Source: a virus
Lineage: Duplodnaviria > Heunggongvirae > Uroviricota > Caudoviricetes
DNA: 32,827 nucleotides
Strand: one strand, 5' to 3'
IMG/VR virus record: IMGVR_UViG_2703718824_000005
The translations under genes and the position numbers were made by a program. The notes under the pieces are model-generated. The model was not told where the DNA came from and did no database searches. It worked only from the letters and a program-made list of their open reading frames with translations. Of this stretch, positions 2,371 to 5,785 are shown in pieces (the first letter of the stretch is position 1; each line of letters starts with the position of its first letter).

Positions 2371-2468
2371 GCCAAGACTACACACAGCAATGAAACTATT
2401 GCCTGTCTTTTCACCACTTCAGGCTCGGTGGTATGCTGGAGTTCTCACACAGCCAGCAAGGAAACCTA

Positions 2469-2810
2469 ATGAACCAGTTTTATGTTCACGTTCGTCTGTT
2501 TGAAGCAACAGCCGAACAGACCAAAAAATTTGAAGAATTAATGCTTAACTTTCTGTACCAGAAAACAATCAAAGAGTCTGACGATAGCTGCTGCAGACTG
2601 ATTCCAGAGGGATATATCCTCAAAAGCACAATGAACTGCCAACAAATCCTTGATCAAACTTTTTCCATTGCTAACAGTGCTGGTGTTGACGCAAATATAT
2701 TTGTCTGCAAATTTGAACAAAGCGCATGCTTACTTCCGTCTGCTTCCTTAGTTGGCAACGATTTTGTTCATCACGATCTTACGCCTAAGCCCATCAAGCT
2801 CGATTCTTAA
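2469..2810 (+). CDS. Hypothetical protein (113 aa), AT-rich, opposite strand to the P_L operon
   Basis: ORF 2433..2810 trimmed to ATG 2469 (AAGGAAA RBS); fills a 560-bp stretch with no minus-strand ORF; its 3' end overlaps the convergent gene 2748..3056 by 63 bp. No recognisable family. Confidence 0.35.
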   Translation: MNQFYVHVRLFEATAEQTKKFEELMLNFLYQKTIKESDDSCCRLIPEGYILKSTMNCQQILDQTFSIANSAGVDANIFVCKFEQSACLLPSASLVGNDFVHHDLTPKPIKLDS

Positions 2811-3056
2811 TGCCTTAACCATTGTGTCGTGATAAACACGGCTCACCCTCTCTCCATTGCATGGCAGGGGGGTGATCGTGTTAGCCATGAAATTCATGAA
2901 CTTGGTTCGATCAGGATCTTGCGCCCCGCAAGTCTTTAATGCCTGTTTTGCTAACAAAATACGGGCCTCAGTGCCTGCATTTGGCTCTATCTGCTGCAAA
3001 CGTTTAGCGTCTTCCAGCAACAATGCGATCACATGCTTCAAATCCTGCTCATTCAT
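2748..3056 (-). CDS. Hypothetical protein, first gene of the leftward (P_L) operon, in the position lambda uses for N
   Basis: 102-aa ORF with a GGAGAG RBS 5 nt upstream of the ATG at 3056; located 100-150 bp downstream of the candidate P_L. Not arginine-rich at the N-terminus, so not an obvious N homologue. Confidence 0.55.
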   Translation of the reverse strand: MNEQDLKHVIALLLEDAKRLQQIEPNAGTEARILLAKQALKTCGAQDPDRTKFMNFMANTITPLPCNGERVSRVYHDTMVKALRIELDGLRRKIVMNKIVAN

Positions 3057-3149
3057 CTATTCTCTCCACTGAAATCATCCGCTAACGAATCATCCCGGTC
3101 TTCGTACGTACCGGGCGGGCTACTTCGTGGGTGTCCTGCCTGTTCGTTG

Positions 3150-3215
3150 TCTTAACACCTTTAAGTTGTAATTTAGTTGTGGTTTTGAATGTTGTCAACA
3201 ACTTTATGTGGTTTG
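3150..3215 (-). promoter_or_regulatory. O_L-like operator cluster with candidate leftward promoter P_L
   Basis: Minus strand reads TTGACA (3198-3193), 17-nt spacer, TAAATT (3175-3170). Motifs AACACCTTTAAGTTGT (3153-3168) and ACAACTTTATGT (about 3198-3209) recur at the cI-cro intergenic region. Confidence 0.4.
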
Positions 3216-3261
3216 AACGAGTAGCCAAGGAGTGCAAGGATTATCAAAAAAAGGAGGTTGT

Positions 3262-4152
3262 ATGGAAGACGCGCTTTACGCTTTTAATTACACACAGAAC
3301 CGGGACAAGTTATTTGCTAACTTGATTAGCATCATTGATGGAATCATTGCAGATGGAGTTGTCCGTGAAGAGGAGGTTCTTTACTTAGATACATGGTTAC
3401 TTGAAGCAAAGCAGATTATCAATAATGGAGTTATAAAAAGTCTATCTGCTCGGGTGTCGGATATTCTTGCGGATGGAATAATCACATCAGAAGAACGTGA
3501 TGACCTTAAAAATAGCCTTCTCCAAATACAGAGGGAAATTCTTGATATCCCTGAAATTGATTTTTACTCCAAGGATGTAGATGTCCATTTACTTAATGGA
3601 CTATGTAAAGGATTAATTGCTGATCGGAACTTAACTCAAGAAGAAATAAGATATCTTAATTGGTGGCTTGAGCAAAATGGAGCTTTGAAGAACAACTACC
3701 CAGGAAAAAAACTTTATGCACTTGTAAAGGAAATTCTTAAAGATGGTGTTATTACTGAAGATGAGAGTTTAACTCTACATAAGGCATTAGTAGACTTCAC
3801 AGGATGTGACTTGGAAAGTGGGGTGGTGGATGGTTTGGCGACCAGGCTGCCTATTGATGTAGGGGCTTCGATAGAGTTAGAGGGTAAAACCTATTGTCTT
3901 ACAGGCACTTTTGTTGCAGGAAAGAGAGCCGTAGTTGAAAATTTGATTAAAAATGCTGGTGGGAACATCAGTAGTGGAATTACTCAAAAGTTGGATTTTT
4001 TAGTAATTGGGACGCTTTCCTCCCGTGATTGGAAATTCTCTAGTCACGGAAGGAAGATCGAAAAGGCTATATCTTATAGGGATGATAATGGTGCAAAACT
4101 TAAAATTATTTCTGAAGAAATGCTTTTCGATGCATTACCAAGTTCGCGATGA
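3262..4152 (+). CDS. Moron protein with four TerB-like repeats and a C-terminal BRCT domain
   Basis: ORF 3232..4152 trimmed to ATG 3262 (AAGGAGG RBS, 5-nt spacer); 296 aa. Four roughly 45-aa repeats with the motif ADG-x-(V/I)-(T/R)-x-EE-x3-L; the C-terminus (LEGKTYCLTGTF...KLDFLVIG...) matches the NAD-ligase-type BRCT pattern. AT-rich relative to flanking phage genes; 3' end overlaps cI by 18 bp. Confidence 0.8.
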   Translation: MEDALYAFNYTQNRDKLFANLISIIDGIIADGVVREEEVLYLDTWLLEAKQIINNGVIKSLSARVSDILADGIITSEERDDLKNSLLQIQREILDIPEIDFYSKDVDVHLLNGLCKGLIADRNLTQEEIRYLNWWLEQNGALKNNYPGKKLYALVKEILKDGVITEDESLTLHKALVDFTGCDLESGVVDGLATRLPIDVGASIELEGKTYCLTGTFVAGKRAVVENLIKNAGGNISSGITQKLDFLVIGTLSSRDWKFSSHGRKIEKAISYRDDNGAKLKIISEEMLFDALPSSR

Positions 4153-4821
4153 CCAGAATACCCTACCTATAACATGAATTCTGGCTCGTCTATCTTCAAA
4201 GGTGAGTATTTCATCTGGGTACTCATCTTTGTTGAAGCTTCTAAGAATCAAGCCACCGTCAGGTAAGTTGATAAGTATTTTAACCCTTAGCAATACACCA
4301 TCTCGTACGGCATAAAGATCGCCATCACGAATAGGAACGGTTTGAGAAATATCAACGGCAACAAGATCTCCATTATTGAGAACCGGTAATAAACTGTTCC
4401 CCCATATTTGTACGATCTTGGCATTAGATGCACATACGCCAGATTTTCTCAAATCTGCTCTTCTTAACGGAAACCAGTCAATAGCTGATTCAACTATTTC
4501 AGCCAGACATCCGTTACCTGCCGATAACTCGACATCTAAAACAGGAATGTTTACGAAAATATCGGGGTCTAATGCGGTGCTTTCTGCTTCTTTTACAACA
4601 AGATCAGGTATGGATGCGTTGTCTTCAATACCAAGTTGTAACCACTTTTGTGATACACCTAAAACTTTTGCAATTTCTTTAATTTTGCGCGGTTGTAGAG
4701 TTTCGCCATTCTCTATTTTGGCTACAGATTGTTGTGAAAGTCCAATTTTTTCAGCTAGTTGAGCTTGGCTCATGCCAGCTTTCTCTCTACCTATCTTTAA
4801 TCGTTCTGCCAGTGTTTTCAC
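4135..4821 (-). CDS. cI: CI-type prophage repressor (XRE HTH + S24 LexA-like peptidase domain)
   Basis: 228 aa; N-terminal HTH (SQAQLAEKIGLSQQSVAKIENG) and C-terminal autocleavage-type domain; divergent from the cro-like gene across an operator-rich spacer; GTG start with GAGAGGG RBS. Confidence 0.9.
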   Translation of the reverse strand: MKTLAERLKIGREKAGMSQAQLAEKIGLSQQSVAKIENGETLQPRKIKEIAKVLGVSQKWLQLGIEDNASIPDLVVKEAESTALDPDIFVNIPVLDVELSAGNGCLAEIVESAIDWFPLRRADLRKSGVCASNAKIVQIWGNSLLPVLNNGDLVAVDISQTVPIRDGDLYAVRDGVLLRVKILINLPDGGLILRSFNKDEYPDEILTFEDRRARIHVIGRVFWSSRTW

Positions 4822-4844
4822 AACATATCCCTCTCTTTTTTGAT

Positions 4845-4940
4845 GAGGTTACAACTTTATGTTTTAGCTTTCCAACACCTAAAAGTTGTGGTGAAAGTTG
4901 TTAATGTTGTATTCTTGCAGCTCGTAACAACTTAACTACC
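4845..4940. promoter_or_regulatory. O_R-like operator cluster with divergent P_RM/P_R region between cI and cro
   Basis: Repeated half-sites ACAACTT / AAGTTGT at about 4850, 4884, 4895 and 4926, including AACACCTAAAAGTTGT (4874-4889), which is near-identical to the 3153-3168 motif. Exact -35/-10 elements not resolved. Confidence 0.4.
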
Positions 4941-4956
4941 AAAAAAGGAGAAAGCT

Positions 4957-5205
4957 ATGACACCTGAGCAATTAGCCTTATCGGAGGCAATCGCTCTGGC
5001 TGGTGGTCAATCAGAATTGGCTCGGAAGCTCACAGCCAGCAGCGGTCATTTAGTAAAGCAACAACATGTCTGGAACTGGTTGAACAGAGAAAAGCGTCCC
5101 CCTGCAAAGCTCTCGATATTCATTGAAAAGACCACTGGCATATCAAAAGAAAAATTACGTCCAGATATTTTTCAAAAGATTAAAGATTCATCAGATGAAA
5201 AGTAA
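4957..5205 (+). CDS. cro: Cro-like / YdaS-family HTH regulator
   Basis: 82 aa; AGGAG RBS 7 nt upstream; HTH segment (GGQSELARKLTASSGHLVKQ) and a C-terminal EKLRPDIF motif typical of YdaS-type Cro proteins; divergent from cI. Confidence 0.8.
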   Translation: MTPEQLALSEAIALAGGQSELARKLTASSGHLVKQQHVWNWLNREKRPPAKLSIFIEKTTGISKEKLRPDIFQKIKDSSDEK

Positions 5206-5227
5206 CCACAGTTTTAAGGAGATAGCC

Positions 5228-5785
5228 GTGGGTAAGCATCACTGGAAAATAGAAAAACAGCCTGAGTGGTACGTGAAAGCTGTCAGAAAAACTATCGCGG
5301 CGTTGCCGGGGGGTTACGCTGAAGCCGCTGACTGGCTGGATGTAACAGAGAACGCTTTATTCAACCGCCTTCGTGCAGATGGCGATCAGATTTTCCCGCT
5401 GGGATGGGCAATGGTTTTACAGCGTGCTGGTGGCACTCACTTCATTGCTGATGCTGTGGCGCAGTCTGCAAATGGCGTCTTTGTGTCTCTTCCTGACGTC
5501 GAGGATGTGGACAACGCCGATATTAACCAGCGTCTGCTGGAAGTCATTGAACAGATCGGCAGTTATTCAAAACAGATTCGTTCAGCAATCGAAGACGGCG
5601 TAGTGGAACCGCATGAGAAGACAGCAATTAACGACGAGCTGTATCTCTCAATTTCGAAGCTGCAGGAGCATGCAGCACTTGTCTACAAAATTTTTTGCAT
5701 TTCAGAAAGTAATGACGCCCGCGAGTGTGCAGCTCCGGGCGTCGTGGCGTCGATTGCTTCTGGTTGTGGAGAAACTAACGCATGA
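5228..5785 (+). CDS. Phage regulatory protein, CII / YdaT-like
   Basis: Position directly after cro; GTG start at 5228 preceded by AAGGAG (alternative in-frame ATG at 5195 overlapping the cro stop). Family assignment is from position and general sequence character only. Confidence 0.55.

Follow-up and report, generated by a model that had tools for sequence, protein, structure and literature searches.

The immunity regions of the lambdoid phages lambda and 434 are the described systems closest to the one analysed here. In lambda, one repressor, CI, serves two operator clusters, O_L and O_R (the left and right operators), and accessory cargo genes expressed in the lysogen, rexAB, lie between cI and the leftward promoter P_L and are co-transcribed with cI from P_RM, the promoter for repressor maintenance. 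When bound at OR2, the lambda and 434 repressors stimulate P_RM (the activating operator lies at about -42 from lambda P_RM), and in both phages Cro shares the operators of CI. In 434 too, cI has an operator cluster on either side, and an operator abuts the -35 hexamer of P_RM and overlaps that of the rightward promoter, P_R. The 434 operators, in O_R and in O_L, are 14 bp long and have conserved outer bases ACAA..TTGT (PMC1636474). Two other systems share particular genes with the region: the P2-like Vibrio phage K139, whose orf2 adjoins cI, co-directionally and downstream of it, in an operon annotated as lysogenic (cI-orf2-glo-int) with no promoter annotated for orf2 itself, and the e14/Rac-type switches (cohE/croE, racR/ydaS/ydaT). 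The region studied here belongs to a stretch of 32,827 nucleotides from a virus of the Caudoviricetes (IMG/VR record IMGVR_UViG_2703718824_000005; hereafter the window), in which a cI gene and a convergent gene for a BRCT-domain protein are flanked by two related operator clusters. This lambdoid immunity region is related to that of 434; its specificity is new, though of a known kind, and its architecture is modestly unusual in one respect: a P_RM-like promoter of the convergent BRCT cargo gene, docked on an operator of O_L, is probably an architectural novelty that has been kept across Enterobacterales.

A motif search of the two intergenic regions (3057-3261 and 4822-4956), which the initial annotation had proposed after noticing similar motifs at both ends of the cI-containing block, recovered a common 15-bp pseudo-palindrome, ACAACTT-N-AAGTTGT (that is, ACAA-N7-TTGT; ACAACTTNAAGTTGT). 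Four copies with at most two mismatches are present in the 32.8-kb window, all of them within these two regions, where shuffled sequences lead one to expect 0.13; none of 100 shuffles reached four, and the similarity is thus above shuffled background. Allowing three mismatches adds one match in the whole window, and only two sites per cluster fit the palindrome at that threshold; other spacings between the 7-mer halves (gaps of 0 and 2-5) gave nothing beyond the known sites, and a gap of 0 gave no matches. In a de novo k-mer test, AAGTTGT/ACAACTT was the top enriched 7-mer common to both regions, with six of its nine window copies inside 340 bp (hypergeometric p=7.8e-11, Bonferroni threshold 6.8e-6). 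Compared directly with each other, the two regions are similar to a degree that is only moderately unusual: 5/500 dinucleotide shuffles attain a match of 12/12 and 12/500 one of 14/16. The case therefore rests on the motif statistics and on other loci. As to the two near-identical 16-mers initially reported, AACACCTAAAAGTTGT lies exactly at 4874-4889 and AACACCTTTAAGTTGT is real but occupies 3154-3169, one nucleotide away from the 3153-3168 given for it. The second type of shared site, ACAACTTTATGT, does occur in the window at just two places, 3198 and 4851, and the several GTTGT half-sites described at each end amount to three on the left (3165, 3176, 3191) and three on the right (4885, 4897, 4906).

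For comparison, a genome scan and two contig look-ups provided 16 usable relatives, hence 17 loci including the window (L-numbers below designate loci). The relatives come from Citrobacter, Serratia, Providencia, Proteus, Tatumella, Rosenbergiella and Pantoea-type prophages and from a contig labelled Pseudomonas lundensis; their identity to the window ranges from 47 to 80% for CI and from 55 to 77% for the BRCT protein. Information content (bits/position) was computed across the loci, for O_L in a gapless register. The elements of the region are as follows.

3155-3169, no strand: operator A of O_L, ACACCTTTAAGTTGT; one mismatch to the consensus; spans about -6 to +9 of P_L; 1.69 bits/position (14 loci)
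3198-3212, no strand: operator B of O_L, ACAACTTTATGTGGT; two mismatches; centre 3205; 1.86 bits/position
4851-4865, no strand: operator D of O_R, ACAACTTTATGTTTT; in the spacer and -10 of P_RM, an OR3-like position; 1.89 bits/position
4875-4889, no strand: operator C of O_R, ACACCTAAAAGTTGT; in an OR2-like position, overlapping the -35 of P_R and adjoining that of P_RM; 1.83 bits/position
3198-3193, minus strand: P_L -35, TTGACA; TTGACA/TTGACT/TTGACG/TTGGCA in 17/17 loci; 1.76 bits/position
3175-3170, minus strand: P_L -10, TAAATT; TAAATT/TAGATT/TAATTT in 16/17 loci, the exception being L010; 1.69 bits/position
4886-4891, plus strand: predicted P_R -35, TTGTGG; TTGTnn in all loci, TTGTCA in Providencia; 1.71 bits/position
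4910-4915, plus strand: predicted P_R -10, TATTCT; TATAAT in L003 and L004, TAnnnT in nearly all loci; start near 4922
4875-4870, minus strand: predicted P_RM -35, TTGGAA; TTGGA[AT] in 17/17 loci; 1.92 bits/position
4851-4846, minus strand: predicted P_RM -10, TAACCT; TAnnnT in 17 loci (TAACCT, TAATGT, TAAAAT, TAGTCT, TAATCT); 1.59 bits/position; start near 4839
3213-3218, plus strand: predicted BRCT promoter -35, TTGAAC, directly after operator B; TTGATT in most relatives, TTGA in 16/16 BRCT-bearing loci; TTGAnn, 1.84 bits/position
3233-3241, plus strand: predicted extended -10 of the BRCT promoter, TGc-AAGGAT (hexamer 3236-3241; AAGGAT, 1.38 bits/position); start near 3248; 7/12 match
4135..4821, minus strand: cI repressor gene, GTG start, 228 aa; 434-type helix-turn-helix (HTH) N-terminal domain and S24 autocleavage domain
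3262-4152, plus strand: BRCT-domain gene, convergent with cI, 296 aa; Pfam BRCT at residues 206-290, phrog_3989 over its full length

The strongest support for the operators is that the same sites are kept in both clusters of 16 diverged loci, which agrees with the initial proposal that O_L and O_R are of one operator type. Indeed, the palindrome is found in two clusters in every locus, one upstream of cI and the other beyond the BRCT gene or, in the sole locus without a BRCT gene (L011, Serratia sp. PL17), directly beyond cI. The other 15 relatives carry a BRCT homologue convergent with cI, so that its position is the same in 16 of the 17 loci. Conservation extends to the four sites and the promoter hexamers but not to the spacers between them: operators and hexamers have 1.25-1.9 bits/position, compared to 0.3-0.7 in flanks and spacers (left flank of O_L, 0.27; remainder of the P_L spacer, 0.40; the 17 nt after TTGAnn, 0.67), and the footprint over O_R is of the same kind. 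All four sites are 15 bp long with N7 spacing (ACAn-N7-nTGT type) in 17/17 loci, including the Pantoea-type loci, where CI is 47-50% identical to that of the window and has the same N-terminal domain. In operator A, the window has ACACC..GTTGT and five loci (L003-L006, L013) have ACAAC..GGTGT, the imperfect half swapping sides; in operator B, L042-L044 have the symmetric variant ACCACTTTAAGTGGT, and the Pantoea-type loci have ACCAC..GTGGT. Such symmetry-related substitutions fit recognition of these sequences by a symmetric dimer. A candidate third operator of O_L, GTTTTGAATGTTGT at 3182-3195, which resembles GTTGTTAATGTTGT at 4897-4910, was rejected because it is not conserved at O_L of the other loci (0.40 bits/position).

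The operators are placed on promoters as in a lambdoid switch. On the minus strand at O_L, the sigma-70 promoter pointed out initially, TTGACA-17-TAAATT, was found again as a 10/12 match and is the sole site scoring at least 10/12 in 2700-5300. Operators A and B, spaced 43 bp from centre to centre in every locus (about four helical turns), bracket this P_L, B abutting its -35 hexamer, and a second cluster of the same consensus thus stands at a leftward promoter. Operator A, which covers the predicted P_L start near 3163, would repress P_L, and B would probably help by cooperative binding. At the other end, the predicted hexamers of back-to-back P_R and P_RM, together with operators C and D, occupy 4846-4915 between cI and a divergent cro-like gene. 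The -35 and -10 hexamers of P_R are 18 nt apart in the window (17-18 nt across the loci) and those of P_RM 18 nt apart, with operator D filling the P_RM spacer and operator C centred at about -43. By the logic of lambda and 434, CI at O_R would repress P_R and stimulate P_RM, and would shut P_RM at high CI concentration. Note that P_R, P_RM and the BRCT promoter were assigned from conservation, because they lie below the threshold of the promoter scan (9/12).

That CI is the protein binding these sites is supported independently of the motif search. The protein has the domains of a lambdoid repressor, an N-terminal HTH (Pfam HTH_3, E=1.4e-15) and a C-terminal LexA-like S24 domain (Peptidase_S24, E=1.1e-14), and belongs to phrog_4 (transcriptional repressor). 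The best match of its N-terminal domain in the PDB is the 434 repressor (E=3.3e-14, gapless), and residues Q28, Q29 and S30 of the latter correspond to Q30, Q31 and S32 of CI, which are kept in 21/21 aligned homologues; the identity of the homologues falls off gradually to about 57%, with S-Q-Q-S-[VI]-x-K-I-E in helix 3 throughout. E24 of CI is the counterpart of D38 in the lambda repressor. The half-site begins with ACAA, as expected for a 434-like Q-Q-S helix. The specificity is related to that of 434 but is not the same, since the spacing is N7 here versus N6 in 434. The region thus has neither the 14-bp ACAA-N6-TTGT operators nor the 434-type Cro of imm434; its Cro is of the YdaS family and, unlike in 434, cI is separated from O_L by a convergent BRCT gene that has a predicted promoter of its own. 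Each site would then be recognised by a CI dimer, with two full copies of the 15-bp operator on each side of the cI-BRCT block. Judging from the sequence, this assignment of O_L, O_R and P_L is very probably correct.

The same reasoning extends to the BRCT gene. The initial annotation placed its start about 60 bp beyond the left cluster and supposed that its promoter overlaps O_L. A promoter can indeed be placed there; it abuts operator B without overlapping it, and the gap between B and the start codon is 50 bp. The pattern TTGAnn-N17-AAnnAT is present in 15 of the 16 BRCT-bearing loci, the exception being L006, whose -10 reads TATCGA. The element is absent in L011, the locus without a BRCT gene, where operator A, P_L and operator B are retained, a pattern indicating that B belongs to O_L independently of the BRCT gene and that the hexamers travel with the latter. 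From the conservation of its hexamers, we consider the position of the BRCT promoter to be probable.

The BRCT promoter and P_RM are built alike. The distance between the centre of operator B and the centre of the BRCT -10 hexamer is 33.5 bp, exactly that between operator C and the P_RM -10, and the two regions are collinear: operator, -35, -10, ATCAAAAAA and Shine-Dalgarno sequence. When they were aligned downstream of the operator, the -10 hexamers matched up without gaps, and 2/2000 shuffles scored as well. The BRCT promoter therefore has the hallmark of P_RM, an operator centred at about -42 (about -43 from its own predicted start) that abuts the -35 hexamer of a weak promoter. Given the equal distance to the -10 and the behaviour of the lambda and 434 repressors at OR2, CI bound to B would stimulate transcription of the BRCT gene in the lysogen; by this analogy, the chances of activation by CI are close to even. 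There is one difference: no operator or half-site lies inside the BRCT promoter (3219-3247), whose spacer is not conserved, and this promoter would consequently be devoid of the OR3-like shut-off for which P_RM has operator D.

Other rightward elements were considered for the BRCT gene and rejected. The pair TTGTCT (3147-3152)-16-TAATTT (3169-3174) has its -35 hexamer in the unconserved left flank (0.27 bits/position); TTGTCA (3192-3197) has no -10-like hexamer 16-19 nt downstream; and GATTAT (3239-3244), taken as a -10, would be 20 nt from TTGAAC, with a start falling in the Shine-Dalgarno sequence. As the phage has a CP76-type CII, half-sites of the 186-CII type (ATGTTTG) around the BRCT promoter were also considered, and no conserved inverted partner was seen by eye in the alignment.

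Taken as a whole, a CI-controlled switch with a P_RM-like BRCT promoter is likely to be the best explanation of the region. In its full form, one CI dimer on operator B would act both ways: together with A it would shut P_L, and it would also recruit RNA polymerase to the BRCT promoter, so that BRCT expression would be tied to the repressor and collapse on induction, the BRCT protein being possibly a defence or exclusion factor. We put the chances of this dual role a little short of even. The BRCT gene would be an accessory gene expressed together with cI, as is its K139 homologue by co-transcription: the product of orf2 is homologous to the BRCT protein over its full length (33% identity over 95%), and the location of orf2 in a lysogenic operon fits BRCT expression in lysogens. 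The comparison with lambda is similar, with one repressor for two clusters and lysogen-expressed cargo between cI and P_L, except that the cargo here is on the opposite strand, with an apparent P_RM-like promoter of its own fed by an O_L operator, and that in place of three adjacent sites overlapping P_L there are two sites bracketing it. For lambda, 434, P22, HK022 and 933W, we know of no description of a cargo promoter at O_L that the repressor activates.

The most serious competitor, though an unlikely one, keeps the operators and P_L as described and removes the BRCT promoter from CI control, taking it to be weak, constitutive and of the extended -10 type, and to lie beside B only since intergenic space is short. 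Extended -10 promoters need little help, and the TGn motif is present in the window and in several relatives; moreover, the retention of operator B in L011, which lacks the BRCT gene, suggests that B exists for P_L and not for BRCT, and between the predicted BRCT -35 and B there is one base more than between the P_RM -35 and C. On the other hand, the -35 adjoins B in 16/16 BRCT-bearing loci, the distance from B to the -10 is identical to that of C and P_RM, and the -10 hexamer itself, AAGGAT, is poor, as is typical of activator-dependent promoters. Another possibility is repression of the BRCT promoter by CI on B, which would make the BRCT gene an early lytic gene whose transcript, antisense into cI, would aid commitment to lysis. 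Steric interference is conceivable as B touches the -35 hexamer, and the tail-to-tail overlap of the two genes (18 bp), with no terminator detected, would let such a transcript run into cI. However, no operator covers the -10, spacer or start of the BRCT promoter, the two genes do not overlap in L041 and L042-L044, the K139 homologue sits in a lysogenic operon, and the similarity of the protein to a defence candidate in PADLOC (a partial match, see below) fits a gene expressed in lysogens; repression is therefore quite improbable.

It could also be argued that the motif is not a CI operator at all, and is bound mainly by the YdaS-type Cro or a host factor, or is a functionless relic of a duplication. 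The conserved solitary and direct half-sites, ill-suited to a symmetric CI dimer, could be Cro sites, and the pairwise similarity of the two regions is by itself modest (p~0.01-0.02). We regard this as very improbable: the half-site starts with the ACAA read by the homologous Q-Q-S helix of 434, the sites are kept with symmetric substitutions while the spacers diverge, and they fall exactly on P_L, P_R and P_RM. Binding of Cro would in any case not exclude that of CI, since the two share operators in lambda and 434.

Several points nevertheless weigh against the CI-controlled switch with its P_RM-like BRCT promoter. All start sites are predicted from hexamers, and the BRCT promoter, P_R and P_RM fit the sigma-70 consensus poorly (about 7/12) and were not called by the scan. 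Each cluster contains two full operators plus solitary half-sites in place of the three tandem operators of lambda and 434, and several of these half-sites are conserved. Operator B is equally at about -42 from the P_L start, so that geometry alone is silent on which promoter it affects and in which direction. All the relatives share one recognition helix, and the set has no heteroimmune member in which protein and operator could be seen to co-vary. Finally, the terminator scan found none on the minus strand at the cI/BRCT overlap, and with an 18-bp overlap (4135-4152) simultaneous transcription of cI and BRCT would collide.

Convergent transcription of the two genes could thus matter. On the plus strand, a single terminator candidate (4184-4207) was found past the BRCT stop codon, a weak one situated within the cI coding sequence. 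By comparison, L011 has a clear hairpin terminator after cI, and in Pantoea-type loci the two genes are separated, by about 35 nt in L041 and about 28 nt in L042-L044.

The BRCT protein belongs to a family widespread in Enterobacterales prophages (354 matches at E<=1e-10). Its structure was modelled with moderate confidence (predicted local distance difference test score, pLDDT, 72), and in this model the C-terminal domain matches the BRCT domains of LigA, RFC1 and XRCC1. The N-terminal part appears to consist of about four helical repeats with the motif D-G-[VI]-[VI]-T-x-E-E, for which the PDB search gave no match. Databases often label the family 'NAD-dependent DNA ligase'; only the C-terminal BRCT region matched ligases here. 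In PADLOC, the candidate family PDC-S48 gave a partial, weak match (E=2.4e-7), in which residues 119-251 align with positions 239-377 of a 411-position profile. Nothing relevant on BRCT in connection with defence or TerB came out of a literature search.

The solitary half-sites mentioned above are distributed over both clusters.

3174-3180, no strand: TAGTTGT in the P_L spacer; kept in most loci, absent from L011 and L042-L044
4895-4910, no strand: two direct half-sites in the P_R spacer, AAGTTGT (4895-4901) and ATGTTGT (4904-4910), with no symmetric partner; 1.45 and 1.43 bits/position
4927-4933, no strand: ACAACTT at about +5 to +12 of P_R

An ACAAC-type half-site recurs near 4927-4933 in most loci at varying offsets from operator C (as an exact ACAACTT in 12/16 relatives), and is absent downstream of P_R in L005 and L006. 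A further half-site, at 4820-4826, overlaps the GTG start of cI and is an exact ACAACTT in L003, L004 and L044. Some of the conserved solitary half-sites, of the form (A/T)(A/G)GTTGT or ACAACTT, are direct repeats with a period of 9-12 bp. As they fit a symmetric CI dimer badly, they may be sites for the YdaS-type Cro.

The immunity module, which extends in the window from 3081 to about 5300, belongs to an e14/SfV-like lambdoid prophage of Escherichia coli. The segment 2700-5300 is 100% identical to E. coli chromosomal prophages in which intE, xisE, ymfI and ymfL are the flanks, and the module is carried by 47 of 5,426 complete E. coli genomes. Many matches in E. coli prophages with the same module begin at 3081 and have different left neighbours, which places the start of the module about 75 bp to the left of the first operator. 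The region was not found in any of 50,697 phage records, where the DNA search matched the cro-cII junction only and the best CI, by whole-protein tblastn, was 44.5% identical. The neighbouring genes are the following.

2748..3056, minus strand: first gene downstream of P_L, left of O_L (from the list of open reading frames), 102 aa; phrog_12693
4957-5205, plus strand: cro-like gene, 82 aa; YdaS-family HTH (Pfam YdaS_toxin), as annotated in the identical E. coli prophages
5228-5785, plus strand: 186-CII-like gene ymfL, following cro; Pfam Phage_CP76

The intE, xisE, ymfI and ymfL backbone, the YdaS-family Cro and the CP76/186-CII-type regulator are shared with the e14/Rac-type switches, from which CI and operator specificity differ. 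The 102-aa gene, which has no match in Pfam, lies outside the module given the boundary at 3081 and the variable neighbours. In many E. coli prophages with an identical module it is swapped for a gene of the ECs1072 family on the opposite strand, beyond which about 440 bp are unannotated (for example L002, E. coli 2018-166, 3303-4180 in place of 2433-3080 of the window); in these, P_L would read antisense through the ECs1072-family gene first. About 65 nt of the P_L leader (window 3081-3150, minus-strand RNA) are kept in the window, L004 and L013 despite different downstream genes. RNAalifold predicts hairpins there with two compensatory pairs, from three sequences only; the single-sequence fold is no better than shuffles (z=-0.8), and no Rfam family matched within 2700-5300 at E<=1. 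The segment may be a nut/put-like element. One of these loci, L004 (contig JAWQUI010000002.1), is the one labelled Pseudomonas lundensis; its CI and BRCT protein are 71% and 77% identical to those of the window and its P_L leader is of enterobacterial type, which suggests a mislabelled or contaminated assembly, or recent transfer.

The analysis defines candidate operators and promoters for an uncharacterised immunity type present in E. coli and many other Enterobacterales. Without activation of the BRCT promoter by CI, the region would be a well-behaved and unsurprising lambdoid switch. If CI does activate this promoter, the prophage would couple a cargo gene to lysogeny outside the cI operon, and the conserved BRCT protein would be singled out as a lysogen-expressed function and a candidate for phage exclusion.

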